DNA of 64,000 bases. Origin: Cenococcum geophilum. Its lineage: Eukaryota. Within the stretch, counting starts at the first letter, position 1, and each line of letters starts with the position of its first letter. The notes beneath the pieces were generated by a model, which was not told the DNA's origin, did not search any database, and saw only the letters and a program-made list of their open reading frames with translations. The position numbers were made by a program, and so were the translations under genes. Below, piece after piece: positions 1 to 55,852 of this stretch. Location: positions 9,114,001-9,178,000 of the forward strand of contig CP158635.1 of the NCBI GenBank assembly GCA_050273025.1, read 5' to 3'.

Positions 1-166
1 TAGGGTTATAGTGATGTTGGTTAATAAAGCTTTTTAATTGGAATGAGGAAGGGCGAGGAGCTTAAGGCTCCTCGCCACGCTAGTGCCGCGGCGACACGTG
101 ATGGCAACTTGCCATCACGTGACGGCAGTTTGCCGTACGTGACGGCAAATTGCCTTATTCCCGACA
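1..166 (-). mobile_element. Partial LTR of a Ty1/copia retrotransposon (same family as 55646-61794); element continues left of the window
   Basis: Near-identical to the LTRs at 55646-55852 and 61588-61794 and ends in ...CCCGACA; abuts the truncated gypsy pol at 167. Confidence 0.9.
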
Positions 167-3100
167 CTAAGTTAGCCTAGTTTAATAATAAATTTAACGA
201 AACTAGTCTTCCTTATAAAGAACTTATATTTCTTAATTGCTACTAGTATTTGTTCTTTTTATAGTCTCTTTAAGACCTATTTAACGTGTTCCCTGTATTT
301 TTCCTTAGTTATTAAGTAGATAATAATAATATTAAGATATACCATAACAAATTAATTTAAGTATTCTCCTAATATATTGTTAATATACTTTTAAAATATT
401 ACTAGTATATTTATAAGCCCGAATTATATAACTAATAGTTTATATAGTCCTTCTTTTAATTTAAAGGCTGCTTTTTATTTATTGCCTTCCTTAATCCTAA
501 TCTAATAGTACGCCCATCTTAGATCTATCTTTATAAAGATTTGCATATTACCTATCCTATTTTAAATTTCGCTAATTAAGGGTAAAGGATACGTATCCTT
601 CCTAGTAATGCTATTTAACTATTTATAGTTAATACACAGCCTTAGTTTACTATTTTTCTTTAGTATAAATAGTACTGGATATCCCGCTGATAACTATAAT
701 AGTCTAATATATCCTTTTTATAGATTTTCTTAGATAAACTCCTTTAATGCTCTACCTTCCTCTTTAGTAAGCTTATAGATTAGAAAGAACCTTAGACTTA
801 TTTCTAGTTCTAATTCTATTTTATAGTTCTATGCTATATACTTTAATAGCTTTTTACTTTCTGGTAACTATAGTTTCTTGCCGTATTTATGGTATCTTTT
901 TAATACGTAGCTTATCCCTTTTTCTGTTTCTTCGTAAGTTGCCCCTACTTAGTACTATACTATCTTAGCCTATTGTTATATCTTACGGCGTTAAGTATCC
1001 CTACTATTAACTTAACCTATAAACTAATTAATTTTTGGATTATATTCCTATAACTAAGGCATTCCTAGTACTGCCTTATTATTCCCTAATAGTAATATAT
1101 TAAAAGACATCTTAATTCATCTCCCTTTAATAGTTAACCAAATAGGTTCTGTTTTAAGATTAATAATACCTCCTCTATAGGCTATTAGATCTCCTAAAAT
1201 TGTTACTAATAGGTAAGGATGCTCCTTTTTCCTATATAGTAAACCTATTCTTTTTAACTGCTGCTAGTAAGATATAGTTCCTTATTACTCTACTATCTAT
1301 TAGCGCCTTAAACTATTAATCTTACTACTTAACTTATAAGTTTAAATATTGTCCCTAAATTTCTTTAAGGGTCTAAGGCTTTATTACTAGTTCCCTCTAA
1401 TTTTATAGGCCTCTACTTTTCCTAACTATTAGCTACTTAATCCTGTTTATACTTAGTCCAACTTTAGCCAATACTTAGTTTACTTTTTATCTTTAATATA
1501 CTATAGATATATATTCTCTAAGTATTCCCACTACTATTATCTATTTAGGCATTCTTCCGTAAGGAATCTTCCTAGCTAAAGTATTAAGTCCCCTTATTTT
1601 TATACTTTTACTAAATGCTAACTATATATATATTTAGCGTTTCTATACTTTGCCTTATTATATATTTAATATATTCTTCTTAAATACTTATAATACTTAT
1701 CCTTAGGTGCTTTATATATATTATATATATTATCTATATATGCGATTTATACTAATATATAATATACTTAGTATCTTAGGTTAACTCTTAGCTTGTTCTT
1801 ATTCTTAAGTTTAAACCTTTCTTATATTAATCTAAGCGTTGCAACTTTATTTATAAATACTAAAATTTATCTTTTACTTCTCTAGTCCTCTAATTACTCC
1901 TTTAGATATTTTAATATTATAATTAAGGCTCCCTTAATATAAGTTATAACCTTTTCTATAATTAGGTGGTCTTAGATAACTTTTTTATTCAGCTATATAT
2001 AGAAATGTTCCTACTTATTATTATATCGTTATCTATACCACTTTTAGTATAGCTGTTTAAGTATATATAGCATATTTATAAGGAAGTATCTTCTTATTAC
2101 TACATTATAATAGCCTTTTATATATCGTTTTTTAAACCTAATTAGAATCCCTAGATCCTCTTCTTATTTTAGTTTAGTAAGCTACTTAGCTCTTAGTATG
2201 CCTACCCTAGGCCTATTAGTAATTTGTTATACCGGTGCTCTATCTTATATACGCCCTAATATACTAGATCTCTTATCTAGTTTCTAATCTTGCTATAAGG
2301 TAATTCTTACTCCAAACTCCTTTATAGTTTTTTTCCTTTCGCGTCTTATAAGTGGATCCTTAAAGTCTTCTTACTTCTTAGTTTTAGTTTATTCGGTGGT
2401 CCTTATTTATATATTAAAGTCTTAGTCCTATAGGATTCTTAATCCTAAGCTTGCTTCTAACTTAAGCTTAGCTCTTACCTTAGTCTAACTAGGCTTAGGT
2501 ATTCTCCTCTTATCTTAAAAGTCTTAAATCTTACTTATCTTATTTTAAGAATCTTATATTTATAGGAAACTCTATCCTAAGCTTATTTATATATCTTTAA
2601 ACTAAGCTACTACTCTACTCTATTGGTTTCTGTCTATTATAGGTCCTTAAGCTTACCTTATTTCGTCTTAAGAATCTTAGTCGTCTTTATCTTATCTTAA
2701 GAATCTTAAGCCTTTAGCCTTTTGCCTTTATTAAGTGCCAAAGTAGTTCACTATTCTACTTCTCTTGCGTCTTATAAAGCGATAAACATCGTGTCTAGTA
2801 GGGTTTTAATCCCTACTAATATTCCTTGTTCTATAGTGGAATTATCCTTTACTTTTAGTATAACATCTCTAAGGTCTATATGCTTCTAGTAAGCTACCTT
2901 TATTACCTTATTATTATAAAATGTTTTACCTACGTTAAATTTATTATCCTTAATGTCTAATCTATAAACTAGTTTATTAGTTTCTCTATACGCTATAGGG
3001 TTCGGCTCCTATAGCTAATAGCTTACGCCATACTTAGCGTCTTTATAAATTTGGTATACGTTATTATAATAAAACGCAAAACTTTTAATTAAATACTCTT

Positions 3101-4719
3101 TTATTCCTTATAGTATACTATTATCCTTCTATATATATATATCTTCTACTATTAGTTTTGTTCCCTTTATTATATAGTAACTCTAACTATCTTTATAATC
3201 CCTTATAAAATAACCTTATTTCCTATAATTTATATAAGCTTCATTTTTAAACTATTAACTTTATTATAGAGTCCGCTTAAACGTCTTTTGCTACTAAGAT
3301 CTCTAGTTTAGCCTTTACTTTTTAGTCCTGTAATTACTAGATCCTTAACCTCTAAGTTTTTATAGTTTCTTACTCCATCTCTTATAGGTTTCTTTAGTAC
3401 TACTTAGGTCTATTAGCTTTGTGCTATACTATAGTTTCTAACTTAGCTTTAGTTATTGCGTACTTTACGCCTTATATAACTATAGAACTCTATCCTAACC
3501 TTTTTTAGCCTACTCCTTTTAGTAGATCTAATTATTAATCTTAATCGCCTAATCTATTAGTTCCCTTAGGGTATCTACATTTTCTATTAGAATAATTACG
3601 TTTTAAACTTTAGCCTTAAGTCCTTGTTTATACCATACTATAAGCGCCCTATTATCCTACTTAACTTATATAGCTAGCGTTTAGAACTATATTGTATACT
3701 TAATTACTAAGGTTTATTACGTAATGTTCTAAAGTTTTCTTTCTGCTATAGTTATACCTTCTGGGTCTCTAAACATTTATATAAGTTGCTCTATAAATCC
3801 TTTCTAGCTTAAAAATATAAATCACACCTTTTAATTAGTGGTCGTTATTTTATTTATCTGTATCTTTATAAGGTAAGGCTTAAACTATTTAAGTGCTCTT
3901 CCTAATAGGAATAGTCCCGTATAGGCTATTTAATCTATAGGTGTTAGTAGCTTTACCCCTTCCTGTGTAACTTTAAAGTGCATTTATATAAGAAATCCTT
4001 TAAGCTTTAATCTTTCTCCTAAGTATCTCTTAATTAATAGTAGCTTAATCTTCGCCGTTTCTATCCTATTAACCCTTTCTTCTAGTGCTGCATTATTAGT
4101 TATTAACCGGTTAATTACCTCTTATAATTATCTAACAGTTATAGGTTGCTATAAGTTAGTATTTGCTATACTGGTGTTATCTACTAACCTTAATATAGTT
4201 GCCGCCGTTATTAGCGTTATAGTGGCTGCTTTTAGTGTCATATTGTTTAACTTTCGGTATTTAATACTATAACTAGGTAGTAATTGTATAACGGAACCTT
4301 ATAGTAGAAACTCTAATAGGCTTATTATTAGGCTAGGTGTATAGGTAATATAAATTAAAGTTAACAATATAATAATAACTAGTGGAGTGGTTACCTAATA
4401 GATTAACTCTAATTGTATTCCAAGAATTACTATAAGGAAGGAACTATCTAGGTAGGGATTAAGGGTCCTTAAATACACAACCGTACTCCTATAAAATCCT
4501 TCTTATATATAATATATATATGCTCTATCTGCTTTATTATAGATCTTATAAATTATATAGATTATATAGATTATATAGATTATATTATGTGACCTTAGTT
4601 ACTATTCCTTATTATATAGCTCTATCGGCTCCATTTTAGACCGTGCTCTAATTAACCAACTAGCTTCTTTTGACTCTTCCTTAAGTAGTCATAACATCGT
4701 ACTTAAAGCGTCCGTAACA
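167..4719 (-). mobile_element. Ty3/gypsy LTR retrotransposon copy A (5' LTR, gag, protease, RT), RIP-degraded and interrupted at 166/167 by the copia LTR
   Basis: LTR at 4287-4719 is the reverse complement of 8668-9089. Gag ATG at 4241; zinc-knuckle relic 'AYINYRK*GYFIRDYK' (~3190-3240, = CxxCGKxGHFARDC). 167-1268 is the reverse complement of pol at 4721-~5820. Confidence 0.9.
4287..4719 (-). repeat. 5' LTR of gypsy copy A (~430 bp)
   Basis: Ends ...CGTCCGTAACA on + (TGTTACGGACG on -); matches LTR 8668-9089 in inverted orientation. Confidence 0.88.
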
Positions 4720-7700
4720 ACTAGCAGCAGTTAAAAAAAAATAGGGTTACTATATAGGAAAAAGGAGTATCCTTACCTATTAGTAATAATTTTAGAAGAT
4801 CCGATAGCCTATAAAGGAGGTATTATTAACCTTAAAATAGGACCTATTTAGTTAACTATTAAAGGGAAATAAATTAAGATGTCTTTTAATATATTACTAT
4901 TAGGGAATAATAAGGCAGTACTAGGAATGCCTTAGTTATAGAAATATAATCAAAAGATCGATTAGGTTATAGGTTAAGTTAATATTAGTAATACTTAACG
5001 CTATAAGATGCAATAATAAGCTAAGTTAGTATAGTACTAAGTCAGAGCAATATATAAAGAGACTAAGCAAGGCTTAAGTTATATACTAAAGAGATATTAT
5101 AAGTATGGTAAGAAACTATAGTTACCAAAAAGTAAAACGCTGTTAGAGTATATAGTATAGGGCTATAAGATAGAATTAGAACTAGGAATAAGTCTAAGAT
5201 TCTTTCTAATCTATAAGCTTACTAAAGAGGAAGGTAGAGCATTAAAGGAGTTTATCTAAGAAAATTTATAAAAGGGATATATTAGACTATCGCAGTTATC
5301 AGCGGGTTATCTAGTACTATTTATACCAAAAAAATAGCAAACTAAGGCTGTGTATTAACTATAAATAGTTAAATAGTATTACTAGAAAGAATAGGTATTC
5401 TTTACCCTTAATTAGTAGGATTTAAGATAGAATAGGTAATACGCAAATCTTTATAAAGATAGATCTAAGATAGGCGTACCATTAAATTAGAATTAAGGAA
5501 GGTAATAAATAAAAAGCAGCCTTTAGGTTAAAGAAAGGACTATATAAACTATTAGTTATACAATTTAGGCTTATAAACGCACTAGCGACGTTCTAAAAGC
5601 GTATTAATAATATATTAGGAGAATACTTAAATTAATTTATTATAGTATATCTTAATAATATTATTATTTACTTAATAAGTAAGGAAGAATATAGAGAATA
5701 TGTTAAATAGGTTTTAAAGAGACTATAAAAGGAACAGATACTAGTAGTAATTAAAAAATACAAGTTCTCCACTAGAAAGACCGATTTTATTAGATTTATT
5801 ATTAAATTAGGCTAACTTAGTATAGATCTAAAGAAGATTAAGACTATAGTAAATTAGTAAGAACTAGAGAACATTATGCAGTTAAGATTATTTTTAGGGT
5901 TTTATAATTACTATAGAAAGTTTATAGCGTAATAGTTAAAGGATATTAAACTATTTACGTAATTAATAAATAAAAAAAACTATAGGTATAGGGTAAAGAG
6001 TAATAAGAGTTATTTAAATAAGTTAAGGAATTATTTACCTAGGAGCTAGTTTTTAAAATCTATTAACTAGGATTAGAGGCGGTTATAAAAATAGATATAT
6101 TAAACTATATACTAGGAGTATACTTTATATAGAAATATTAAAATAGATAGCACCTAATGGCATATTATAGTTGGAAGATAATACTACTAAAGTTAAACTA
6201 TAATATCTATAATAAGGAGTTATTAGGTATAATTATAGTACTAAAAAAATAGAAAGTATTCTTATAATATACTAAAAAACTATTTAGAGTTAAGATAGAT
6301 TATAAAAACCTAATAGGATTTCTAATAATAAAGGAACTTAACTAAAGATAGGTTAGATAGGCAGAAATGCTTATAGAATACTATTTTAAGATTTAGTATA
6401 CTAAGGGTATAGATAATATAAGAGCAGACGCTTTAAGTTAAAAGGCTAAACTATAGAACGATAAAAAGCTATTAGGGGCTTTACTATAAAAAGACATAGA
6501 TAGACTAATTAGATATAATTATCTAAAAATTATAGTAACTTAAAAAGAACTAGATAGAGTTTATAAGTTATTAGAAAGCTTTTAGGTATAAAATTTTTTA
6601 AAGGTATAGCTAGAAAATCTATAGATAGATATATATAAATATAAAGAAGTAAAGTATATCCTAAGAAGTATAGCAGAATAATTTATAAAAGATTTCTATA
6701 AGGGATTAACTTAAGGATATAATAGAGCCGCGAACTTAGTATTAAGACTCTAGGAGGAGTATATTATTAATAGAATTTAGGGCTTAGCGCGAAAAATTAC
6801 TAAAAAAATATCTAAATTATTAAAGAAATAAACTAATAAGGTATAAGCTATATAGAGGGCTCTAACCTATTAAGATACTAGAGAAACTATAGGAAGTTAT
6901 ATTTTAGGACTTTATTATTAAGTTACTAAAGTTAAGAGATCATATTACTAGATAAGATTATAACGCGATTTTGGTAATAATAGACAAGCTTATAAAGTGG
7001 GTATACTTTATAGCATATATAGAAGAAATATTAGTAAAAGATATCGCTAAAATCTATATTAAAGAAGTATTTATAAGATATAGGGTACTAAGTAAGATTA
7101 TATTAGATAGAGATCTAAGATTTATAGTAGTATTTTAGGAGGTATTCTTAGCGGAATAAGGAGTTAGAGTAGTAACTTCTACTATATATTATCCGCAGAC
7201 AGACGGTTAAATAGAAAGATTAAATTAGATACTAAAACAGTATCTAAAACACTATATTAATCACGCGTAGAATAATTAGGTATTACTATTACTAGTTATA
7301 TAGTTTATATATAATGCAACGCTATAAAAAGGAATAGGTATATTACTATTTAAGGTAAATTATAAATATAAGCTAAGGATATTGTTATTACTATAGTAAG
7401 TAAAGAAAATAAGTAGTATAGCTAAAGAAAGAATAAAGATATTAATAAATCTTTATATAGACCTTGTGGGATTAGTAAAGAAGGTATAAGAAAGAATAAA
7501 AAAGTACTATAATACTAAGAGATTTAAGGGATTAGATCTTAAGGAGGGAGATAAAGTATAGGTACTATATAAAAATTTTAAGTGTTAACAATTAAGTAAG
7601 AAGTTAGACTATATTAAACTAGGACCTTTTAAAATTATTTAAAGGATTTTACTAGTTACGTTTAAGTTAAACCTACTAGCTAAAATAAAGATCTGCCCTA

Positions 7701-7959
7701 TATAGTATATTATAATGCTAAAGCTAGTATATAGGAATATTAAGCCGCTAGTTTATAAAGTAGATATATATAGAGGGTAAGAAGAGAATAAATAGTAAGT
7801 TTTAAGAATTATTAGTTATAAGGACATTAACAATAAAATATAGTATAAGGTAAAGTGGATAGGCTATAATAAGACTGCCTAGAAACCACTAGAGAACCTA
7901 AAAAACGCTATAGGAAAGGTATAGGAGTATTAAAAAAGATTAGGTTAGGCAGTATTAAT

Positions 7960-8559
7960 AAAGAGAGATCGCTAAAGAATAAGCTACTTAAGGGGGACTT
8001 AAGAAGAGTAGTTGCCAAACTACTTAGATCTATTCCCTTCTTAGCTAGAAGAGAATCCGTTCTCTTATTACTAAGTTCTTATAAACCCTATTTTATAAGC
8101 TTCTACTTCTTAAAATAAACCTTTTTATAAACCTTTTTAAGACGAAGTAACTAAGCGGACGCTATAATACGGGCTTTAAGAGCCTTCTGCTCTATATTAT
8201 AAGAACGTTTTAACTTAGTAAGGGTTTAAGATAGTTTACTATCTAGTTATGTAGTAGTAGATTAAACATAAAACCCTAAGATAAATTAACTAGGGAACTA
8301 GACGACTATTTAGAATAATAGGTTGCGTATATTTAGTATTAGAGGTAAAGCAAATGTTATAGGACGAATAAATATTTACTTTAGTATATTTTAAATAAGA
8401 GGACGGTTATTATAAGGATAGACTTACTAATATAATATAAACTAACCCCTCTTTTAAACAACAAGAATATAAAGATAGTATAATTTTACTAAGTAATAAT
8501 ATTGCAGCAATAGTGCGAGTACGACGTTGGGCGTATAAAGAAGAAGAAGCTTTAGGTAT
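7960..8559 (-). pseudogene. Antisense extra ORF of the gypsy element, Cys-rich (Zn-cluster-like) plus a charged, coiled-coil-like tail
   Basis: Minus strand reads 'IPKASSSLYAQRRTRTIAAILLLSKIILSLYSCCLKEGLVY...SSYLKYTKVNIYSSYN', which reverts to M...CSRCSKEGLVC...SCSECTK...SC. Confidence 0.6.
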
Positions 8560-8667
8560 AATAAGTAACAATATTAACTAAATTAATTAGACGGATATTA
8601 TACCTCTAGTAAATAACTTAAAGATACTAGAAATCTTTAAGGATAAAGATAAAGAGGAAGGAGATAG

Positions 8668-9089
8668 TATTACGGACGCTTTAAGTATAATATTATAACT
8701 ACTAGGAAAGGAGTTAAAAGAAGCTAGTTAGTTAATATAGACACGGTCTAAAATAGAGCTAATAGAACTATATAATAAGGAATAGTAGCTAAGGTTATAT
8801 AACGTGCTACGTATTAAATAAGAGGAACGGGAGAAACTTACGTACCTTATATATAAGACGTATATTACGTATAAAAAGGATTTTATAGAAGTATAGTTAT
8901 ATATTTAAGGACCTTAGTCCCTACCTAGATAGTTCTTTCCTTGTAGTAATTCTTAAAATATAATTAGAGTTAATCTATTAGGCAACCACTCTACCAGTTA
9001 TTATTACGTTATTAACTTTAATTTGCATTACCTACACACCTAGCCTAATAATGAGCCTATTGTAGTACCTGCTACAAGGTTCCGTTATA
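8668..9089 (+). repeat. 3' LTR of gypsy copy B (~420 bp)
   Basis: TATTACGGACG...GGTTCCGTTATA (RIPed TG...CA termini); inverted match to 4287-4719. Confidence 0.88.
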
Positions 9090-11823
9090 TTAACTTTTCG
9101 CTTATTTATAGACTTTAATTAAGGATTAGCTTTTTGCAATGGTTAAATAGTAAGTTCTTTTTTAGGATCTTGCGACTTAAGTATAAGAGCTATAGGAGTC
9201 CGAAAGCCTTAAGTAATAAATAGATGGCTGAGGTTTTAATATTGAGCTAGACTTAGCTCCCTAATAGTAGGCTTTTCTTTTCCAATTTCTTTTTATAGAG
9301 CATATTAAGTTATATATGGGAAATCATAAAGATAAAACGCTTATAATAGTATATAGCGAAGCTATCGGTCTTCTATAAATCTATACTTTAAATAGCGCTA
9401 CTAGCTTATCTCCAAGAACGGTATAATTAAGTTTTTAGGATAATAATAGTAAGCTTTAAAGCTCTAACGAATTGTTTGTTTTATTTTATTGCTAATTAAA
9501 TGCTTTAGTATAATATAATAAGGTTTTAGGTATTTAAGGTTCTTAAAAAAGGTTCTTAATAAAGGAATTAAACAATCTATTAAAGAAATGTTCTATAAAA
9601 TAAGGTCTCTTATTAACTGGTCTAAAATAGCTAGGAAAATCTTTCTGGACTTTATTAGCGCGGTAATACAATTTATATTAGCTTTTAAGATAGTTAGTAT
9701 AAGTAGTTTTAGATTTTAAATAGTGTTTAGATCTACTACTAATAGGGGTAAATCTATATTACTATAGCTAATAATCTTCTTCTAAATTTTAGAGATATAG
9801 TTAAGTCCATAAAGTAGTTCCTAGTTTATTTAGCTAGCACTCTTTATAAGCAAGTAGAGAATAATATACCTTATTATATTTAAGCGTTAAGAATTTATAT
9901 AGCGCTCCGATCTAAATTGGTTCCTATAGGCCTTATATTTTTACTAGGGCATTAAATACTATCGCAAAGTGGGAATTCTTAAGAAGTTGTCTTAGATTAT
10001 TTAGCTTAGACCTATCTAATAGGGCCTACTATCTATTCTCTAATTTCGTGTCATTCTTAAAATGATAGTATTATATTTTGCGAAATACTTCCCCGTTTAA
10101 CGGTTTCTGTTTATTTAAGTATTTTTTAATTATCCTTATAAGGACTATTTGTGGGAGATCTGTAATAGATTTTTTAGCTAAAAAATTAAGACACTTAAGT
10201 AAACGCGCTTACCTTTAGAGAAGAGCCTCATTATTTACTATTGGTTATTATCGTCTAAAAATTCTTTAGTAGCTTTAATATGATATAAGCCTCTAAGGTA
10301 GTTTATACTCCTTAGGCTAATAAACAGTATTAAGTTATCCTTCTAAAGTTAATAAAAACGTTATTTATTAAGACCTAAAAAGGCTAGTAACGAGATAAGA
10401 GCCATATTGTCTATAATAGTATTAATAAAAATATCTTTTTCTAGCCTTTTATAACCTACTCTTTTAAATACATTTTTAAGGCGGCGGACGTTTTTTTTAG
10501 ATAGTAACCGATGTTTTTTACGTATAAGAGGATAGTTAAAATTAAGTGCCCTAAGTTTTATTTTCGCTATATCTAGGTAGTTCCGCGCCTTAAGTATAAA
10601 CAGCTTATCCGTGGCCTTCGTAGCTGCGCCTTGACCACCCACCCGAAGGGTAGGTGGTGGACATCCAAATCGCCAGGACACCTCAATCGCCAGAATTGAT
10701 CAACTTTCTTAAATATTTAATTACTACACAACCACCACAATAAGTAATTATCTATGAATTGAAAACTAGGTCGCTTGCCTTACTTAAGCCATCTATAATA
10801 GTATATATTTTTTAATTATAAAGGTAATGCATAAAATTTATAATTTATACGGTCGCATTAAACAACGCGTTACTAGACAAAAGTCTTAATTAAATTGATC
10901 TATAATAAGTAGATAACTTAATAATTATAAAAAAGGAAGTACTATATTATAAATAATAAAAAAAAAATATTATTAGGTAACGCCTTAGCATTTTTATGCT
11001 TAAATAATTTATTAATTATATCCCTATTAACTGTTATATAGATTTTACTAAACTACTATTTATTTATAGTACTAAATAGGCTATATACTTCTGAAATATA
11101 TATTTATAAAAATAGTAACTAAAGTAACTAAAGTAGTGTTTATAGAGGCTATACTTTACCTACTTAGCCTAAAAAAAGTATTTAATAAACTGCCTTTATT
11201 ATATAAGACTACACAAAAAAAAACTTAATATTAAAGACTATTAATATTATTATATTAAAGATAATTAGGCAGATAAGTAACTTAACTTAGTATATTAAAT
11301 ATAATTAGTAAAAATAGGAAAATAAAAACCTAAATAAGGCTATATAAAAATATGTCTATAAAGTAAATACTTAATTTTAAGCTTTTAAACCCTTTAAATA
11401 GTAATTAAAAAACACTAAAATTAAAATTAAGTAATGCTAAAAGTAAAAAGCCAATACTAAAAAGGTTATATAAAAATTTGGGGTAATTATTATAGCTAAA
11501 GGCCGTTTATTAGCTAAAAAAAGAAAAATAGATAATAAAAAAAAGCTCACAAATAAGCGTAAAAAGAAGGCTAAATCACTAATACTAGAGCTTAAGACTT
11601 TTAATAACGCTAGGGATAAATATAATAAATATAATAAAGCGTATAAGCAGTAGAAAGACTTATAATTATTAATGTGGTGGTGTTATATAATTAATTCTTT
11701 TAAACTCTGGCGATTGAGGTGTCCTGGCGATTTGGATGTCCACCACCCACCCTTTAGGTGGGTGGTTAAGGCGCAGCTACGAAGGCCACGGATAGAGTTA
11801 TCTATAGTTATAGGAAGAGCTAT
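9090..11823 (-). pseudogene. DUF3723 protein (Starship-associated), interrupted by a TIR element near its 5' end and cut at its 3' side by gypsy B
   Basis: ORF-track peptide 'KNVRRLKNVFKRVGYKRLE..FINTIID', then 'NYLRGLYHIKATKEFLDDNNQ**IMRL' (CLxGxHR...WWxVxL) and 'YLNKQKPLNGEVFRKI' (YSNE..P.DGE.FRKI), which are recognisable DUF3723 N-terminal motifs. Confidence 0.8.
10608..11792 (+). mobile_element. Non-autonomous Tc1/mariner (pogo/Fot1-like) DNA transposon derivative
   Basis: GC-rich terminal inverted repeats TCCGTGGCCTTCGTAGCTGCGCC... / ...GGCGCAGCTACGAAGGCCACGGA (~85 bp well matched, weaker to ~140 bp); TA on both sides (10606-7, 11793-4); interior very AT-rich and too short for a full transposase. 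Confidence 0.85.
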
Positions 11824-12024
11824 TACTTATACTAAGAGCTTAATATTCCTACTAATGTGGGAGACTTAAAGCTCTTTTATGGGAAATATTAGTTAGAACC
11901 AAATATTAAAACTAAAATTTTTAATTTAGTATTTTAATTATACTATCTTATAGATTATAAAACTGTATTAGGCGGCACGAAGTAGAATTAAATTTTTAGG
12001 AAACTATAAATATTTAAATATATA

Positions 12025-15000
12025 TATATAAGTAAATGTTTAGAGGATTTCCTAAGCTCTACTCCTCCGCCTTATCCGCTTTTATTAATAGTAAAAATTC
12101 CTTAAATAACTGTTAATTTTAAAAGCGAAGGTGCTATTACTAAGTACTAATAAGCTTTTAAGTTCTTAATACTAGAAGAGAGCCAGTATTAGAGCCTATT
12201 ATTTATTATACTAGTTAGTAAAAAAATAAAGTCTACTATTCTGCAATACCTACTAGGAGATACTATAGATAGAAATTTTCTAGCTAATGCGTATAATTAA
12301 ATCTACCTTTAGGAAGACCTTAAACCCGCAAAGATACTTTACTAATCCTTTTTATTAATTATAAACTTTAAAACTATTCTTTATCACAGTTACTTCTTTT
12401 CTATAGCAGTGGGGAGATAGTAACGAGAAAAATCTCTTAGTAGTAGCCTTTAAAACGTCGTAAAATGCTCGGCTTATTATTATATAATTAAGTACTCTTA
12501 CCTTTTTCTAACGTAGTTTACTATTTCGTTACGGATCTGGGTAAACTAAGGGAGGTTTACCTTAGCGAGCTTAAACGTAATTTTTTTGGCTAGCGTCGGA
12601 ATAATAGCTACGCCGTCTTCCTTCTTACAAAATCACGTCTGAGAGCCTTTAGCGAGTTTTGTTAAAAGCATAAGCAAAAATCTTAGTTTTAGCAATTTTG
12701 TAAAGGGATTTCCTCTACAACATAATAAAATAAAGTCTTTAAAAGTTTATAGATATATTTTAGGTAGCTACTTTATATACTAACGGCTTTAGAATTATAA
12801 TGTCCCCTCCTAAATCTGAGATTAATTTTGTTAAAGTTAAAATTCCCGTTGTTAAAAGCATAAGCACCTTTACGTACCCTTATATACGGGCCCACGTAAG
12901 GTATAAAAAGCCTAAAATCTTATAATCTATAGAGCTAGATCTCCTAAGTAATTTAATATAATTTTTACCTTAAAATACGTGGTGGGGAGATTAATTAATT
13001 TTGTTGGGGTTTATAAGTTTTCCTTATAAAAAAAGCTTATGCTTTTATACAAATCTCGCTAAAGTTCCTTAGACAAAGAATTCGATTAAATATCTAAAGG
13101 AGATTAGCGCGTCAGCGCAATCGATTTCTTAGTATGAGTCCACTAAGGTAAAAGGGAGGTGTCTAAGCTTATAGCTTAGTAAGCTATTAAATCTCTAAGT
13201 TCTAATCTCCCCGTACTCCCCTATATTCTGCTAGTATTTAATATATCCTTACTAACCTTTAATAAAAATATTGCTAAATTAAAGTCCCTAGCTTTAATAA
13301 CTAAAATAATATAGAACTTTAAGCAATATAGTAAAGCTAAAGACGTAAATATAGATCTAAAGGCTTATTTTTACAGTATCCATATCCTTAGACTAAATTC
13401 GTCTATAAGCCTAGCGAAATGTTTATACATATTTTGAAAGCGAATTCTTTTTATATTAGAAGAAGCACGTGTTTTACGCCAATCTACTTAAGTTAAATTC
13501 CGTTTTAAGCATTTTAAGGCTTTATTAAGCTTAGCTTTAGAGCACTTTTACTCTACTATTACCGCCCTATTCTTATTTGTCTAAGTAGTATAACCTTATA
13601 GCTTCTTAAACAAGGGGTTTTTAGCGTGCCTTAGAGATCTTATTAAGCACATACCGTCTTAGGCATGGCTATAGCACTTTATCGCCCTATTAGTAGTATT
13701 AGCGTTAATTCTATTAAGCTATCCTCCGGGTTTTTATTATATAATCCCTGCCCTAAATCTAGCTAACTAACTAATGCTAATTATAGACTTTCTTCCTACT
13801 TTTATCTTCTTAAAGCATTTCTTAAATGTTTATATCTCTGTAATGTAGGACTATGCTATAAATGCGAGTATTTATATAAAAATTTTATTAGCGGTTCTGG
13901 ATAATTTCCAGTCTATATTCTAAACACTCTAATTAAACTCTTTATTAACCGCATCTTAGATTTACACGCAAAATATCGCAAGGCTTCGGCCCTAAGTAGT
14001 AGAGTTTAGAAGCTATAAGTCTTACTTCTATTATCTAATGTAAATGCCCGAAAAGGTATTAGACTGCGGTTATATACTTTATAATATATATATTAAAATA
14101 TATAGAAGATAATTATCCTTAACGAAATACAGTTATTATCTCTTATTTTATGTCCTCTATGCCTTACCTTATAGAGCGTCTGATTTTTAATTTGTACTAC
14201 CTAGTGCTAGTATTTATATTTTAAGTATAGACGGCGGAGGTATAAGGGGAGTTATATCTCTTATTTTTCTAATATATATTAAGCAGGCACTATCTAACTT
14301 TAGATATTTACTATGAGAACATTTTAACCTTATCTGTAGCACTTCTATAGGTATATAAAAATAAAATTATATTAATAAGAACTTAAGTTAATCTGGTATT
14401 TAGGTGGGATAACCGCTATAAGGATAGATATTTTAGGGTGGAGCAGAGCTGAGTCGTTATAGAGATTTAAGGATGTAGTAAGCAAGACCTTTAAGTGGCG
14501 AAAATTTAGATCTACTTTACTTACTAGGTTATAAGAGATAATGCTAAGCTACGCCTAAGATGGCTAGTATAGCCTTACCGCCATCAAATTAGGCTTTAAG
14601 GCCGCTTTTAGATCCAATTTAAAGATATTTAATCTTCTAATAAACAATACTAGAGTTGTAGTAATAATGACAACTACTAAGGAGTTACAGCCTTATTTGT
14701 TTTGTAATTATAATAGGGGTAAGCGACCTAAGAAGATTAGTAAGTAAAGTACTTTCCTAATTTAATGTAGTAGCGTCCTAATTATATAGGGTATAGTTTA
14801 ATCTAGGCCAATTATTTATAGTATAATGTATCTATTAGTGAAGCGTACGTTTAGTCTAGGAGATGCTTAAAATTAAGCTAATATATTTTAGGGTATGTTG
14901 TACTTTTACCGCACCCTAGTTAGCTAATCTATTATATATCCTATAATTTAATACTAACTTAGAAAGGTTCTTTAAACCTAAAGTAGTAAAAAACCTTAGT

Positions 15001-15842
15001 ACTTTTTAGGATAGGGGCCTTTAAAATAATAATCTAATTATTATTACCTAATTAGAAAGTCTATTCCTATAGCCTAAAAAGGGCAAGCCTAACTTTAATC
15101 TTTTATTAGGGACCGGTATAACCTTTATACTAATAGCTGCTAGCACTTAATCCCTAGTTATAGATCGATTTTACCTAAAACTCTTTAAAAGCTTTATACG
15201 GAGTTTAGACAGCGAGGAAGCATAAAAGAGGTTTATTTATACTATCCTAGTATAGTACTATAGTAGATATTATTGTTTTAATCTTTATCTCTAAGGACCT
15301 AAACCTCTATTTAATAACCTATCTATAGTAGGAGAATTAAAAAGCCAAACTATGGAATATATAAAATTAAGTTTTATAATTTCTACTATTATAGACTTAA
15401 TATATGCTATAATATTCTACTTTAAGCTTCATTATCTCCCTTAGTATATTAACGGCCGTTATAAGTGCGTTGGTTATATATTTTGCCGACTTAATCCCCC
15501 TCCTAGTGGGCGTTAATACTTATACTCTTAGCTTATTACTATATTACCTTAGTTCCTTATTTATAGTCATCTAATAGCTTATATATATTAAAAGTACTAA
15601 AAGGTTATCCCCTATTTAAACGACGTATATAATTTATGGTTAATACCTTAAGCAAAAGTATTGCGATCTCTATTAGAGGGATTATAAGTATACCTAGGTT
15701 AATAAGCGGATATCCTATATGTCTTAAAGATCTAATTAATTTACAGTAACTTTACGCTCTATTTAGCTGGGTAGATTACTTAATACTTAAAAAGCCTCTT
15801 TTTTTTATTCCAGTAAAGCGAAAAATAGATAAACTATAGTAA
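12025..15842 (+). pseudogene. Patatin-like phospholipase (PLP) with long N-terminal region, Starship-associated type
   Basis: 'LSIDGGGIRG' at ~14221, 'FNLICSTSIG' (FDLICGTSTG nucleophile elbow, ~14325), 'F*DRGL' (DGG, ~15004); N-terminal 'VLLPFSNVVYYFVTDLG' interrupted by a MITE. Confidence 0.85.
12557..13151. mobile_element. 595-bp MITE, Mutator-like (9-bp TSD)
   Basis: Direct repeat AAGGGAGGT at 12548-12556 and 13152-13160; termini TTACCTTAG.../...CTAAGGTAA; subterminal inverted match CTTTAGCGAG..TTGT..AAAAGCATAAGC (~12647-12675 vs ~13036-13066). Confidence 0.8.
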
Positions 15843-16803
15843 TTTATTTATTCTAGTAAGGCAATTACTAAGTTGCTTGCTGTATAATATTTTATACGCA
15901 TATTAGTAAAGCCTTAGCTACTAGGCGGCTAGAAGCGAAATTATCCTATAAACTATATTAGAGTATAGTAGTAAGTGTTTTACTTAATTTAGATATCTAG
16001 CTTTCTCTAGAGTTTAAGTTTAAGTTATTAGTATTTAAATTACAGGAAGTAGTTTCTTAAAATTATCTAAAAGGCGCTAAACTAACTAGGCGCTTAATAT
16101 TTAGCTAACTACACTTCTAGTCTAAAATGGTATTAAAATAACTTAATTTAAAAACAAGGTTTTCATTTTTATCTTATAGCCTGCTTTAACGGTTACTTAT
16201 TAGCTCTTACTCTTATTAGTTATAACTTTAATTTAATTACTAACCCCTATTAGTCGCCTTTCATGCTTATAATATACCTACTAGAATCTTATTGTTGGGG
16301 AAGACGCAGCCGGATTTAGAGGCTCCTCCCCCCCGTTTTAGGAGGCTGTTTCTCCTCACTTAGACCTATGTTTGTCGCCGCTTTTACAACATACTAAGCA
16401 TGCTAAGGACGGTAGGGTCTTCCTCATTTACCTACTAAACCTAGAAGCTCCCCAAACGTTATTTAAGAAGCCATAGACGTCCGCCGCCTACCTTTATCCT
16501 CATCCTTCGCCAAAAGCACTACCCTTATATAATAAAACCTCCCTTCTATACTACGCTCCTTTAACCCTTTTCCCACAGTAGCTACGTATGCATTTTCCTC
16601 TGTTATTATGTTGTTTACTTTTAATACTTAATTTCTAGGTTTCTACCTATGGGATTTTTTTGCCCTATCCCGCTCTTAAAAACGCCGATCTCCTATAAAG
16701 CCTTTTTTAGCGTTCCTATTAACAGCAGTCGCTCTTAAGCTAGCTTCTACGTGTAAGTAACTGGCAGCTATTAAAGCACTAAAATACTACGCGTTTAACC
16801 ACC

Positions 16804-19324
16804 ATGCCCTTTTAACGTAAGAAATGGCGAAATATAGATCTAGCCTTTAGCTTAGACTCCGAACTAGGCAAGCCGTTTTATTTTAAGCTAGCTTCGGACT
16901 TAGATTTAAGCTCTAACTCTAGAGCTAAGGAAGACGCCAATTCTAAGGGGGAATATTTGTAGTAGAGGATTGCGTATTATAAGGACTAAGAAAGGGCGAA
17001 GTTAAAACGGAAGCCCTAGTCTACTTTTTTTATTAAGCGTAAGTTTTAAAATTAGGAAAAGTTCGTTTATATTTAAACCAAAATTCACCTTATAATACTA
17101 ATGATTTATATTTAGGTTCTGCCTAAAAGTTAAGTCTAACCTAACTAAGGCCCTTCGTTAGTGTGTAGCTAATACGTTTAAAACATACCTTAAATAGCGC
17201 GTAAAGAATTCTTAAATTAAGAAGAAAAGCACGATCTAGTTATACTAGAGATAAATGCTATGCAAATTTATAGATGTAGTAGGCTATAGTATAAACAATA
17301 GCGCAGAACTTAATATACAAGATATAGGTAATCTTTAATTTTTTTAAAAAAATCCTGGCTGATTTATTATAGTGGATTCTAACCTACTTAACGCCAATAT
17401 ATAAGCTGGACACGTTAGAGAAAGAAAAGGATGCTATATATATGCAGGACTTATATACAATTATTAATGCCTATTAGATAATGGACGTAAAGCCTTACTA
17501 TAGTCGTTTTTAAGTATAGATAGGAGTAATCCTCCTCCTCTTTAGTGCCATGGCAATAAGACCCTAAGCTCTTATTAAAAGTTTAAGTGTAAAAGGCTCT
17601 AACAAAGCGCTTTTATATAAATATATTACAATCCTAAAAGTTCGCGATATAAAAAACTTTAATTAAACTATAACTGTTGCCCTTGTAAGTCTTATATATA
17701 TTAAGAATTCTAGAGGTATAGGTAGACGGTATATAGCGACGTTAATTAAAGACGGCGCGAATAGTGCTAATATACCTATAGTAAGAGGTTTATTTTCTGT
17801 CTTAAAAGTATCCTAGCTTTTTATATCCTATTCTATCTTATAAGCCTTACTATCGCGGATAATATATTTTAACGCCGTTACACTTCACCGGAAGAGATTT
17901 TTAGACTTAAAATCCTAGCAAAAAAAGAGAGTCTTAAAGTGAAGTTTAAGAAGGAGATAGAGAAACGACCTATTTTTTAAGATATTAAGATAATGGCTAG
18001 TTATAGGGGAGTGTTGAACACTAAAGCATTCCCTTACTAGAAATGCCGCGATTACTATATATAGTTAGGCCAAGTAGCCGGGTTTAAAAAATTGCTTAAA
18101 CTTTACTAGCTGCAATAAGCGTCTAAAAGGAAATTAAATAGTAAGTGTCTAATTTGATATAAGTGTATATATTAACTAAGTTTTCTAGGTACCCTTACTC
18201 TAAAAGAGCGAAATTAGATAATAGGTTATTATAGTAATACCTACTAACGGTTTTATTTACCTAATTTAATTAAGCGCGATTTCTAGTCGATTTACTTTAA
18301 GACTCTATTATAGGACGACCTTATTTAATATGCCGTATAGATAGGGATCTTAAGGGATAAGCGGGCCCCTATAGGTCTAACTAATAAGCAAAAGCTTAAA
18401 TTCTAGCTAGAACTTAATTAACGCCCTAATATTTTATAGCTTTATAAGAAACGAGAGCAATATAAGTAAAAGATTAGGAGCTAGGGATATTACCCTATTA
18501 ATACCGCAAAGGGAATAAAACTATATAACTATTATAACAAAGCTAGATATAAACTTTATAGTATTATAAACGTCCTACGTAAACAAAAAGAGGACTAGGT
18601 TATTCTTAATTTTTATAACGCCATCGACAATTATAATATTAAAAGATAGCTTAGTGGTAGCGTTAGGACGGAAATTCCCACCTATTTAGCTGTATAGTAT
18701 AAATTTTATAAATATATTGCTATTGCCAAACTACTATCTTAGCTGCTAAATAAGCTTGAAGAAGGACACGCTATAAAACTCCATATAAAGTTTATCCACA
18801 ATCTCGTTAAGTATTATAATTAATAAGAGAGTCAGCAGAATGGGATCCTAAGTAAGGCTATTAGATTTTAACTTAGGTCTAAAGTAGACTAAAGTATAAT
18901 AGGCGTAAAAAGAGGTGCAAGTAACGCTAATACTGGCACCTATTAGTAGGTAAAGCGGTAGAAAGAATAGATTAGCTTAGACTCGCCTTTTTAAGAAAAC
19001 CTAGATAAGACGCGGAGCGCGGTCCCGATTAAGGAAGAGGGTATTAAGATAATACAGCTGCCGTATCCTATAACGTTTATTAATCTTATTTATCTTATCT
19101 ACATCGGCAATAACTAACTCTTAACGCTAAGGCAAACCCGCCTATTTGCGAAGAAGGATATACTATAGAAGTATTTTAATAATTACGTTATAGAAGGAGT
19201 GTTTAGGCAGGGGTTCTACTATAAGCATCCTTATTGCTTAGAGTAGATTAAAGAACTTAAGCATTTTAAAAATTACGCAACCTTTATGTATAGCGTATAG
19301 CATCCAATTAAAAGGCACTACTAA
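16804..19324 (+). pseudogene. DUF3435 tyrosine recombinase (Starship captain), RIP-inactivated, with introns
   Basis: Acidic N-terminus; 'KLDTLEKEKDAIYMQDL...RF*V*IGVILLLFSAMAIRP*ALI' (R of T.RP at ~17560); 'LGQVAGFKKLLKLY*LQ*A' (YxLRR); 'ERN*IIGY' (MGH); 'RFYLP...RDF*SIY'; C-terminal Cys/His finger region 'HFKNYATFMY'. Introns at ~17729-17780 and 18141-18188. Confidence 0.88.
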
Positions 19325-30116: not shown

Positions 30117-32536
30117 ATGCAGCTATTTAAGACTATTAACTATATTTATTCCGTCCTTCTGGTTGTTTCTTTCCTTTACTATACCGTGCAATCTATAAGA
30201 TTGTAGTTATTACTAGTTATATATAGGAAGCGGCTAACTTAGGTATTATAGATGGTGGTAGAAATTATAGCCAGCTATATAAGTATCTAAATTCTACAAC
30301 TATAAGCTTATCTAATAATAGGTAAGGTACAGAAGGTATTCTCCAGGCTATATACTAGCAAATTACTCTACACGCATGTATATAACGTCCCTATATAAAA
30401 TTATTGTTCTATACTAACTAGATGTTTAGGTCTTTATAGAAAGTTCGATACTTATATAGAGTACTATTTAGATCCTTTTTTAACTCAAATTAATTCACCT
30501 AAGGTATTTTTATTTTAGCTCTTGCCTAATTACCTATACCCTTAAAGTCGCCCGTTTTATCGTCCTCGCCATTAACTAATTAATTAACGTCTACTAAGTT
30601 ATACGCCTTATAATACCGGTTTTGGGGATGTTTCTGTTGGTTAGGCTCTCTATCCTATATAGAATACCTTACCTAGCGAGCGAAGTGGAACCGCTACTTA
30701 AGTAGCCCTAAGCTAGTAATATTAAAAGCTGGCGGGATTGTATAGAGGATCTCTTAGTAGTTATACCGTACCTATAGCCAAAGGACTTAAAAATATAGTT
30801 GTTGCTTTGCCTAGTAGGTGTCCTATAAGTCTTAGCTAGGCTACTAGCGATATTGCCATTAATATAAACGGGTGCACTTATAAATGCTACTATAGATAGA
30901 TCTAGTTTATATTTTTGTCCTTTCTAAGTAGCATTAACTAACCGCTAAAGGTTCTATTCCTATTCTAGAATTTGTCTTATAGGTAATAACGCTACTTACC
31001 TTTATTTTAAACCGGTTTAACTTATATATAAAGGGGCACGTTATAGAATATTTAATACGTAACCTAAAAGAGCACGCCTTAAGACACGTTATAATACTCT
31101 TAATGGACTTCTATAGCAATAACAGCTCTAAGGAAGTCTTAGAGGTTATAGTCTTAGAAGAACGGTATATCCATCTTGCGGACAGTCTAATCCTTAATTT
31201 AATACCTTCTGCAATTAACATTATTACCTTTATAGTTTATTTCTCGCACTTTATTGATGCATATATAGGACTTATTATAATTAACGTAATCGTTATTTAT
31301 ATTTGGACTAAGCTCGTTAAGAATCCTAAGCTTTTTTAAATGTATTAAGATATAGTACGAATAGGTATAAGGAAAGCTAGATTAAGTACGACATAGTTAT
31401 ATACTAGGATCTAGTAAAAATAGCTAATTATTAAGATTAGGAGTAGCACGGATATTCCTCTATATTAATAGATAGTAATAAACTAGGATTATGGATAAAG
31501 TGTTTATAACTTTTTACTAGTCTATTAGGAGAGGGATTAAAAGCAATTAGCCTAGCAATTTTAGTACTAGTCTTACTTCTTTACCTTACGTAAAATACCG
31601 CAAGTGTGGGCGGCTTATTTATTTTAATTAGTTCCTAGCTAAACACATTTATGTTTATAGGCTATCTTATATAAACGTATAATATGCTAATAGGTTGCCT
31701 TATTGCAGAAGAATACTTTTCCAAACTTCTTTAAACTAAGCTATCTATCGTTAATAAAGAAGGAGTAATATACCTTAAGGTTACCGCCGGTCGCGTTAAA
31801 TTTAATAATATCTTATTTTCTTACGCCGACGAGGAGCCAACGGTAAAGAAGATTAGTTTTATAGTTAAGGGCGGAAAGACTATTACGCTTATTAGATTAA
31901 CCGGGAGTAGTAAGTCTACACTTCTTAATCTCCTAAAGCGGTTTATTAACCCTAGTAAAGGAAGCATTAAAATTAATGGCTAAAATATTAGTAATGTTAT
32001 ACTAAGAAGTCTATGAGAAGATATAGTAGTTATACCCTAAAATCTTAAAGTATTAAATAAGTTAATTAGGGAAATCGTATTGTATGGGCTCTATACTAAT
32101 AATACTAAAATTACGGAAAGCTATAAAGCCGCTTCTATATATAAACGGATTATATATTATAATACTAGATATAACATAGTGGTTAGGGAAGGAGGTATTA
32201 AACTTTTAGGCGGTAAGCGTTAACGCATTACTATCGCAAGGGCCTTTTTTAAAAATTTAAAGATTTGGCTTCTTAACGAAGCTACGTCTGCTATAGATAA
32301 TATAACGGAGAAATTAATTTACGAATCGCTTAAAAGTTGGGGGAAAGGTTAAACAATTTTAACTATTACTTATCGTCTTAGTATTGTTAAGGGTGCTAAT
32401 AAAATTATTTTCTTAGAAAACGGAGAGATAAAAGAAAGGGGAAGTTATACTAAGTTGCTTAACTAACGTAGATTATACTACGAAATGTAGATAGTAATAA
32501 ATAATGTGGACGAAATAGAGGGGGTTAGAAGCTAGT
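30117..32536 (+). pseudogene. Half-size ABCB transporter, HMT1 (heavy-metal tolerance)-like
   Basis: Hydrophobic N-terminus; 'IPYL*PKD'; transmembrane segment in ORF 31103-31339; Walker A 'RLTGSSKST' (~31895), signature 'LLGGKR*RITIARA' (~32203), Walker B 'WLLNEATSAID', 'ITYRLS' H-loop. Confidence 0.88.
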
Positions 32537-32612: not shown

Positions 32613-33944
32613 ATCTCTATATCGGTAGCTATAAATAATATACGGCCCGCTAAATATAAAAGTTTATATAATATGCCGAGACTTCTGCCTTTTAGGCTGC
32701 CCTATATGTCTACCTATAAGTTTTAGACTTTTGGCCTTTCTATTCTTAATCCTAGCAAAGAATATCTAGTATAGAAAATTACACGCAACTATTAGGACAA
32801 TTTAAAAAGCTTAATCTTAGTACCGGATCTAACTAAGAAGAAAACACGCTCGTTAAACCTAAGAGTTATAAACTATATATTATGAGTTTTGCTATTAAGT
32901 AATTCTATAGGCTCTATAATAACAATTTTAGCCGCTATAGAAACGTTGGACTTGCGTATATATCCTTCTATAATAATATTAAATGGTCTAATAGAAGGTA
33001 TAACACTGTTATAACAGAGTCGGACTTGGGGAAAGGTGCCCTAATTATGGGCATTTAATATGCGCACAGTGTAACCCTATATAAGCCTTAACTACTATTA
33101 CTATTTTAGTAGTGCTAATATAGGCTATATAGATTTCCTATAATGGAAGTTACAGAGGCCAGCCACTCTTAGTCTCCTATATCTAGCTATCTAGTCTAGT
33201 ATTATGTAAGTTTAGCCTTTTTAATTGTTAAGCTTATTATAATCGCTGCTAGTGTTACTACAGAAATAGTCTGCTAAAACGTAGAATAACGTGTATATGT
33301 AAACATGAAGCTTATACAGACTGTTTAGTGGAAATGGAAAAAGAGCTAAATATAGAGTTGGATATAACAACTTAGTGCGTTATAGGCATACCGTATAAAG
33401 AGTTAAATATATTAGATATAAAAACTTGGTACTATATAAGTATACCTGCTTATATTTATATAGCACTGCTAATAGTAAAAGAGTGTCAATATTGAGCTAG
33501 ACACGGACCTGTTAAAGGACCTGTTAAAGTTTATAAATATATACACCCCTATTATTCCAGTTGCGAATATAAGTTTTGTTAGGGAAGGTAGCTATAATAC
33601 TAATACCAGAAGCCGTAAATAAGAGGGGTAGTAGCGATAAGGATCTGGTTATAGTTTATCTTTAGTCTTAAAGTTAAAGAGCACTATATATTCGGCGCAG
33701 TTTGTTAAATTAAAATTAAATAGTGCTAGCTATTGGAGGATAAATTTAATACGCGCTTACGAATGCTCTTATGTTTATATTCCACTACTCTAACTATTGT
33801 TCCTTACTTCCTCCGTAACGATTTCCTTTAAGGCACTATTAATTAATTAAGGAATTTTATAAAAAGAGCGAGCTAGGTAATTAGGCGTAGCGCCCTATAA
33901 ATATATAGCCAGAATCTTAATAGATTTAGCGGCGATAGCTTCGG

Positions 33945-34490
33945 TTCTATAAGCTAGGAGGTTGTAGGAGCTAGGGGCTTATAGGAGCTAGGGAATCCTA
34001 GAAAGTAGGTAATTATATAAGTATAGTGGTTTAATTTAGCGCCCTCTAATTAATACCTAGCGTGTAAATAGGGTATTAATGGGTTTAATAACTTTCGTGG
34101 CTTTGATCCTATAAGCTAGGCGATCGTATAAGCTAGATGCTTGTGGGAGCTGGCCGATCCTACGAGCTAGGTAATTATGTAAGCATAGTGCTCGTGGGAG
34201 CTAGGCAATCCTGTAAGCTAGGTAATTATGCAAGCTAGGTAACCGTGTAAGTATAGTGCTTGTAAAAGTTGAGCAATCCTATGAGCTAGGTAATCGTATA
34301 AGCTAGGTGATTGTGCAAACTGGGTAATTGTGCGAGCTAGGTAATCGTGCGAGCTAGGCAATTATGCGAACTAGGTAATTATGCGAGCTAGGTAATTATA
34401 TAAGTAGAGTAATTATGTAAGCAGAGTAATTATATAAGTAGGGTAATCTAACCTAGCGCCCTCTATTAACGCCTAGTATATAAATAGGAA
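33945..34490. repeat. 17-bp minisatellite (GAGCTAGGTAATCGTGC-like), more than 20 degenerate copies
   Basis: Periodic GAGCTAGG[T/C]AAT; embedded duplicated block TAGCGCCCTCTA.TTAA..CCTAG....TAAATAGG at ~34037 and ~34454. Confidence 0.85.
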
Positions 34491-40826: not shown

Positions 40827-40865
40827 ATAGAATAATATTTTATTACTCTTCCACTATATAAGTGA

Positions 40866-41116
40866 AGTTTTGCGGAGATTTAGGCGGCTAAGGCTAGGTA
40901 GTAGCTTTAGTTAAAACGTATATAAAATAGCATAGGGCGAGTTACCTGGGCTAAATAAACCCAGAAAAGAATAATATTTTATTTTCCTATATTCTTCTAC
41001 TATACGGGTTTAAGTTTTGTAGGGATTTGGGCGGCTAAGGCTAAATAGTAGCCTTAGTTAGGACGTATATAGGGTAGCGTAGGGTAAGTTACCTAGGCTA
41101 AATAAACCTAGGAAAG
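40866..41116 (+). repeat. ~100-bp direct repeat pair
   Basis: 40866-40968 and ~41013-41116 align (AGTTTTG..G.GATTT.GGCGGCTAAGGCT...TAAATAAACC.AG.AAAG), differing mostly by transitions. Confidence 0.85.
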
Positions 41117-41249: not shown

Positions 41250-41880
41250 ATTAATCCCCTACTTTAGCTAATCCCCTACTTAAATAAGTCCCCTACTTAA
41301 ATAAATCCCCTATAGGATCTACTCCCCTACGCTAACAAATCCCCTACGCTAACAAATCCCCTGCGCTAATGAATCCCCTATAGGTGCTAATGCCTATGTA
41401 TTCCACCGCCCTATAGGAACTAATCCCCTATAGCTTATATTCCTATACGGCTTTTGCTCCCCTATAGGGGCTAATAGCTACGTTTTCCTCTCCTATACGG
41501 GAACTAATACCCTATAGCTTTCGTTCTCTATTCCTAGATCTATAAATACTATTAGCTATATCTTTTACTCCCCTACGGAACAAATCCCCTATAAATTCCG
41601 TTCCTATATATAGTAACTATATCTTCTACTACCCTGTAAGAACTATACCCTATAGCTCCTACTTCCGTATAGCTTTTACTCCCCTATAAGAACTAATAGT
41701 AATTTCTTCCACTCCCCTACGGAAACTAATCTTTTATAGCTTGCGGTTCTCTACAGGGGTTAATACCTACTTTCTCTATCACCTTATAGCTTTTAATTCC
41801 TTATGGGAACTAATACTTATATCTTCTACTCCCCTATAGGAACTAATGCCCTATAGCTTCTATTCTCCTATTCCCGGATC
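41250..41880. repeat. Compound minisatellite built on AATCCCCTA / CTCCCCTAYGGGAACTAAT
   Basis: 17-bp units at 41250-41385 grade into longer degenerate units up to ~41880. Confidence 0.8.
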
Positions 41881-55645: not shown

Positions 55646-55852
55646 TCTTGGTCACATAGGGTGACTTACCAATAACGACTACTTAAGTAGGTTACAGTGA
55701 TGTTGGTTAATAAAGCTTATTAATTAGAATGAGGGAGGGCAAGGAACTTAAGGCTCCTCGCTACGCTAGTACCGTGGCGACACGTAATGGCAACTTGCTA
55801 TTACGTGACGGCAGTTTACCGTACGTGGCGGCAACTTACCTTATTCCTAACA
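55646..55852 (-). repeat. Copia 3' LTR
   Basis: Direct repeat of 61588-61794. Confidence 0.93.

Follow-up and report, generated by a model that had tools for sequence, protein, structure and literature searches.

In a 64-kb window of the Cenococcum geophilum genome (GenBank assembly GCA_050273025.1, contig CP158635.1, positions 9,114,001 to 9,178,000 of the forward strand, numbered here from 1), the remains of a DUF3723 gene and of a patatin-like (PLP) gene lie directly upstream of the remains of a DUF3435 gene, the captain of Starship elements. All three fall within 10.3 kb and have been inactivated through repeat-induced point mutation (RIP); the DUF3723 and PLP genes diverge from one another, and PLP is co-directional with the captain (Table 1). 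As a captain takes the first position in its element, the pair most likely originates from a different Starship copy or derelict. On balance, with a confidence slightly above even, we infer that the spacer between PLP and captain is the meeting point of two blocks derived from Starships, a DUF3723/PLP remnant on the left and a captain-led element running rightwards.

Table 1. Positions of the gene relics, insertions and candidate junction in the 64-kb window.
Feature	Position	Strand	Description
LTR-like terminal repeat of Ty3/Gypsy-type relic, copy B	8670..9089	+	DUF3723 is truncated at its 3' side by the outer end
DUF3723 relic	9122..10450	-	Three frame blocks covering PF12520 profile positions 2-412 of 508; C-terminal part missing
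MITE-like element	10591..11810	.	1220 nt, between the DUF3723 and PLP starts; G+C-rich terminal inverted repeats, A+T-rich interior
PLP relic	12100..15842	+	Nearly full length, several exon blocks; phmmer and tblastn
Spacer, PLP end to captain ATG	15843..16803	.	961 nt; holds the GC change-point; candidate junction of two blocks
DUF3435 captain-type tyrosine recombinase relic	16804..19324	+	Full length, four blocks 37-53 nt apart
ABC transporter ATP-binding domain relic	31846-32289	+	Pfam ABC_tran, E=6.8e-15
Fungal protein kinase relic	39276-40517	+	Pkinase_fungal, E=1.8e-69, profile positions 2-386 of 387
DUF7025 relic	43411-43680	-	Pfam, E=4.1e-15

The window is A+T-rich throughout, with a G+C content (GC) of 0.24-0.38, and bears the signature of RIP in 32 of 32 two-kb sub-windows, with TpA/ApT between 1.46 and 1.86 and (CpA+TpG)/(ApC+GpT) between 0.21 and 0.57, where the customary thresholds are >0.89 and <1.03, respectively. 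Only five stop-to-stop frames of at least 80 amino acids (aa) overlap the region from 7 to 24 kb. As the signature is found in every sub-window and open frames are so few, all genes in the region are relics, and nothing at the locus is still able to function or move. The stops that interrupt them are mostly TAA or TAG. The density of stop codons per frame was dropped as a guide to the coding frames, which it did not pick out in RIP-mutated DNA.

Domains were sought with Pfam in six frames over the entire 64 kb, with stops read through as X. The DUF3723 relic was recovered in three blocks: PF12520 profile positions 180-412 of 508 correspond to nt 9820-9122 (E=2.2e-27, 96.4 bits), positions 83-179 to nt 10160-9870 (E=1.4e-13, 50.8 bits) and positions 2-82 to nt 10450-10214 (E=0.0033, 16.6 bits). 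The two larger blocks pass the gathering cut-off of 22 bits and contain 19 in-frame stops in 330 codons, and the two gaps of ~50 nt between blocks look like introns. A word-indexed protein search with this relic, which covered only proteins of length 624-1988, gave no match; the DUF3723 gene of Zopfia rhizophila measures 1847 nt.

The PLP relic is only faintly visible to the Patatin profile itself, as the direct match to PF01734 (nt 14221-14352) reaches 13.4 bits (E=0.089) and remains below the gathering cut-off of 27.7 bits. Its membership in the family follows instead from its homologues. Searched exhaustively with phmmer, the translation of 14101-15900 returned 312 proteins at E<=1e-3, 70 of them at <=1e-10 and the best at 3.8e-49, and Patatin scored above its cut-off in nine of the nine long homologues that were scanned. 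These long proteins, of ~950-990 aa, align from approximately residue 145 through the C-terminus: by tblastn, residues ~145-971 of homologues of ~975 aa map to 13114-14352, 14403-14738, 14968-15561 and 15591-15830, and N-terminal pieces were located at 12100-12324 and 12471-12557. A glycine-rich stretch, DGGGIRG, which we take to be the patatin oxyanion motif, is still legible in the relic. There are 39 in-frame stops in 803 codons. The word-indexed protein search yielded no match for PLP either. With the PF12520 match on the minus strand and the relic that has 312 PLP homologues on the plus strand, the divergent relics reported in the initial annotation are confirmed, and so is its estimate that PLP ends about 1 kb before the captain, as in-frame stops at 15837-15842 fit an end at 15842 and the spacer measures 961 nt.

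The captain relic was identified through PF11917 (DUF3435, E=6.3e-25), and its closest protein, also its only word-indexed match, is K469DRAFT_715808 of Z. rhizophila (783 aa, E=4e-163, about 50-51% identity). The tblastn blocks at 16849-17064, 17114-17323, 17361-17729 and 17783-19321 cover residues 35-783 of that protein, and the ATG at 16804 fits its start. With 54 in-frame stops in 778 codons, the DUF3435 gene by which a Starship is recognised is present as a pseudogene. Undoing all RIP-type changes would raise its identity to the Zopfia protein to at most 81%, against ~16% in a shuffled control, while the PLP relic, 36% identical to its best representative, would reach at most 60%. These identities were rejected as proof of separate origins of the two blocks, since the comparators for PLP are representatives of 50% clusters. 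That a close intact relative was found for the captain and, in the word-limited search, none for DUF3723 or PLP weakly hints at separate histories.

Two insertions have disrupted the pair. On its outer side, the left-hand block is cut at 9089 by a relic of a Ty3/Gypsy-type long terminal repeat (LTR) retrotransposon, and between 8800 and 9130 the profile search detected no DUF3723 match. Insertion of the retrotransposon removed the final fifth of the DUF3723 domain, together with whatever came after it, or displaced it. The initial annotation, whose spacer, strands and PLP end were right, began its region at a position (9090) that marks the end of the LTR-like repeat and not that of the DUF3723 gene. 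This copy (copy B, 4734-9089, plus strand) is truncated at its 5' side and retains RVT_1 (5333-5788), RT_RNaseH (6079-6381) and SH3_Tf2-1, the integrase SH3 domain (7547-7723), all on the plus strand. It stands head to head with copy A on the minus strand (1-4717; RVT_1 at 208-666, LTR-like repeat at 4287-4717), and the two share inverted repeats of 82-88% identity, 4287-4464/8912-9089 and 4585-4717/8670-8802.

The second insertion, similar to a miniature inverted-repeat transposable element (MITE), separates the starts of the two genes. Its arms (10606-10697/11703-11794) are 95% complementary over 92 nt and extend at 81% to ~160 nt (10591-10751/11662-11810), and the interior has a GC of 0.18-0.23. 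A second copy was not present in the window. Subtracting these 1220 nt leaves roughly 400 nt between the gene starts at ~10450 and ~12100.

As a conserved Starship module, the divergent DUF3723(-)/PLP(+) pair is already known. In the Voyager element mp102|voyager|h11 of Macrophomina phaseolina, as listed in Table S11 of Gluck-Thaler 2022, the captain (+) spans 3083507-3086172, and DUF3723 (-, 3140052-3143286) and PLP (+, 3143556-3146670) are found 270 bp apart, 54-60 kb downstream of the captain. The C. geophilum locus resembles Voyager in combining a DUF3435 captain with the divergent pair, in the short upstream region that the pair shares (270 bp in Voyager, ~400 nt here without the insertion) and in the strand relation of pair to captain. 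Unlike in Voyager, the pair stands directly upstream of the captain and every gene is RIP-dead. The premise of the initial annotation that both genes normally lie downstream of the captain thus holds for this reference element.

A comparable pair occurs in Z. rhizophila region h420, where DUF3723(-) and PLP(+) are separated by 322 bp and no DUF3435 appears among the 27 genes listed (Gluck-Thaler 2022, Table S13). The likeness to this captain-less Starship-like region is one of layout, and the same species is the source of the closest intact relative of the captain described here. In h420, however, PLP precedes a Fic/DOC gene instead of a captain, and the region also contains FRE and NLR genes. 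Note that the only literature found to pair Starships with Zopfia was one genome paper that names both in passing.

At the C. geophilum locus, the pair takes another place relative to the captain than in Voyager. The Starships described by Gluck-Thaler 2022 begin with the captain, whose position and orientation are conserved; that of Tangerine, likewise the first gene, lies 1390 bp from the 5' end, and the upstream boundary of a Starship is usually <=2 kb and at most ~7 kb away from the captain (Gluck-Thaler & Vogan 2024). Here the pair begins 0.96 kb upstream of the captain and reaches out to 7.7 kb (6.5 kb if the MITE-like insertion is discounted), where the DUF3723 gene is still incomplete. 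A single Starship with an internal captain would require a true 5' boundary upstream of DUF3723, beyond the Gypsy relic, with the pair as cargo 5' of the captain. Such an element would account for the strand relation that the pair shares with Voyager, for the uniform RIP damage in the three relics and for a spacer in which no border repeat was found, and distances of up to 7 kb between boundary and captain are documented. Its boundary, though, would be at or beyond that maximum, since DUF3723 is truncated at the very point where the pair reaches 7.7 kb, and both the first position of the captain in described elements and the change in base composition between PLP and captain speak against it. 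We consider a single element of this type rather improbable.

This compositional change is the sole junction signal. The best single GC change-point of the region 9.09-51.75 kb is located at 16090, closely rivalled by 15840 and 16340, and separates a GC of 0.292 on the left from 0.336 on the right, a step reached by 0 of 500 permutations in a test that ignores autocorrelation and in which the left arm amounts to only ~6 kb. Because the change-point (15.84-16.34 kb) falls into the spacer, the interval in which the initial annotation expected a breakpoint, the spacer is the candidate junction of the two blocks. A G+C-richer island at 16251-17000 (GC 0.38-0.46) was considered as un-mutated unique DNA, a reading rejected on account of RIP indices that are still high there. 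Neither a terminal inverted nor a direct repeat marking a border was supported by the within-window repeat search, a blastn of 15700-17000 against the window. A 17-nt inverted match, 16236-16252/48428-48444, was discarded as a terminal repeat, as it does not extend and matches of at least 17 nt arose in 6 of 60 Markov shuffles. No tRNA and no 5S rDNA or other Rfam gene reached its gathering score in the window, so that no remnant of such a target is seen at the border; at a relaxed threshold, Rfam matched 15400-17000 only once, weakly and at chance level, to an unrelated family of small RNAs (16705-16779, E=0.33).

The two blocks might also have been brought together secondarily, by deletion, ectopic recombination or another rearrangement among RIP-mutated repeats, and with no insertion of one Starship into another. 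The setting would favor such events, since RIP has affected the window and nested LTR retrotransposon relics, the head-to-head Gypsy pair included, make it a repeat island. A degraded Phoenix of M. phaseolina (phoenix-degraded h46) offers a parallel, with PLP and DUF3723 at lower coordinates than a DUF3435(+) gene (Gluck-Thaler 2022, Table S11), and PLP is not the last gene in Voyager. Against this, each of the three relics keeps its exon blocks in the order of its intact homologues, with no large internal deletions, and no repeat able to mediate recombination was found at the spacer. Secondary juxtaposition is unlikely in our view, though not negligible.

The meeting of two elements in the spacer, our preferred explanation, has to be weighed against several observations in addition to the limits of the GC step. 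A second DUF3435 gene, for which the initial annotation had proposed a search of flanking contig sequence, was detected neither by the six-frame Pfam scans nor by tblastn in the 64-kb window, and the presumed owner of the DUF3723/PLP pair is consequently unseen. The border repeat is missing in the search described above. In-frame stops number 5.6-6.2 per 100 codons in DUF3723, 2.5-6.1 in PLP and 4.9-8.6 in the captain, and with densities so similar no difference in age is visible between the relics. As noted, some Starships have an upstream boundary as far as 7 kb away from their captain. Moreover, at least 11 genes follow PLP in Voyager (Gluck-Thaler 2022, Table S11), and a simple head-to-tail junction would thus need another cargo order or a deletion. 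The second Starship proposed in the initial annotation accordingly stands in part: the captain-first rule, the boundary distances and the GC change-point argue for it, while the single DUF3435 gene, the lack of a border repeat and the equal RIP damage do not.

One may also doubt any Starship structure at the locus: in a gene-poor region, a DUF3435 gene standing alone and a DUF3723/PLP pair unrelated to it could have become neighbors by chance. The published tree of Gluck-Thaler 2022 holds dozens of DUF3435 genes in Z. rhizophila alone, and in the supplementary tree text K469DRAFT_715808, the one closest to our captain, carries no candidate-region tag and so was not scored there as adjoining accessory genes; at the locus itself no element boundaries are demonstrated. 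On the other hand, accessory genes of these families belong mostly to Starship-specific clades, and it is the co-location of DUF3435 with DUF3723, FRE, PLP or NLR genes, without target site duplications, by which Starship-like regions are defined (Gluck-Thaler 2022). The window holds a DUF3435 gene beside at least one of these four accessory families and is a Starship-like region in that sense, with all three genes inside 10.3 kb. We regard chance proximity as quite unlikely. For the left-hand block taken by itself the balance is different, since a degraded Starship without captain calls for at least three conserved accessory genes and only DUF3723 and PLP are found.

The region 9122-15842 represents the dead remains of the conserved divergent accessory pair of a Starship. 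If two elements do meet here, that Starship copy would either abut the captain-led element head to tail or surround it, with the junction within the 961-nt spacer, near 15.8-16.3 kb, and the captain would head its own element, extending rightwards past the ABC-transporter, kinase and DUF7025 relics. Both blocks would then have been inactivated by RIP, which riddled the pair with stops, and invaded by smaller transposons, of which a Ty3/Gypsy LTR retrotransposon cut the pair at 9089/9090 and the 1.2-kb MITE-like insertion split its short shared upstream region. The nested, tandem, derelict-neighbor and rearrangement versions of these events are not separable.

A variant with one Starship in two copies deserves mention. 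A 2026 preprint reports that Starships form circular intermediates, which place 3' terminal sequence upstream of the captain, and a head-to-tail fossil is therefore conceivable; this preprint was all that turned up in the literature on sequence upstream of Starship captains. The pair and the captain would in this case belong to two copies of the same Starship, joined in a tandem dimer or by re-integration of a circular intermediate beside a resident copy, and through such a duplication the whole array would have become open to RIP. Alternatively, it may be routine in the lineage of this captain for the pair to lie 5' of it, which, if true, would widen the accepted Starship layout. We attach only a slight probability to either version.

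Compound and decayed regions of this kind have precedents. Phoenix is nested in a degraded Voyager, and 'Derelict' regions are reported as well (Gluck-Thaler 2022, including the legend of Fig. 2D); nested and tandem insertions have been resolved by starfish (Gluck-Thaler & Vogan 2024), and a preprint describes Keraunos as a tandem hybrid and a nested Pegasus. As in those cases, accessory genes that probably belong to one element are found at our locus outside or upstream of the DUF3435 gene of another, and captain-less remnants can retain DUF3723 and PLP. The published cases differ in that they were resolved by empty sites or several genomes, whereas the present one is a single RIP-mutated copy with no second captain in the window. 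With nested, tandem and degraded Starships already in print, the arrangement at this locus, though RIP-dead, belongs to a known type. A meeting of two elements would add one more case of Starships that landed in or beside each other and were destroyed together by RIP. Such joint destruction has been described within the birth-and-death cycles of Starships, and no new mechanism is added here. For annotation, RIP-rich Dothideomycete genomes still allow the divergent DUF3723/PLP pair to be recognised as one unit even when the patatin gene fails its Pfam profile, and where such a pair precedes a captain, a compound or degraded region should be suspected, not a single element.

To the right of the captain, the element that it leads may have carried the ABC-transporter, kinase and DUF7025 genes, now relics, as cargo. 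By its profile the kinase is well preserved, with 28 in-frame stops in 414 codons, and the Pkinase_fungal family is also listed in a degraded Phoenix region of M. phaseolina (Gluck-Thaler 2022, Table S11). Between 50750 and 51750 the GC climbs to 0.38-0.44, and at ~51.75 kb it falls to 0.24-0.30; this drop may be the right limit of the captain-led block or merely the start of a retrotransposon-rich stretch. No Pfam domain was detected at E<=0.1 from 49.8 to 64 kb.

Further repeats were noted across the window. A G+C-richer segment of ~170-205 nt exists in three direct copies of 86-92% identity (4-175, 55648-55861 and 61590-61803), of which those starting at 55648 and 61590 are 5942 nt apart and resemble the LTRs of a ~6-kb element. 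An 85-nt inverted repeat pair (23355-23439/27385-27469, 88%), whose arms are 3945 nt apart and enclose no Pfam domain, may form the ends of a ~4.1-kb DNA transposon relic. Direct repeats at 40865-41116 and 41372-41865 consist of a 105-nt unit present twice and a 71-nt unit present four times (68-80% identity), and a degenerate minisatellite with a period of 17 nt occupies 33935-34462, its 9-11 overlapping copies spaced at multiples of 17.

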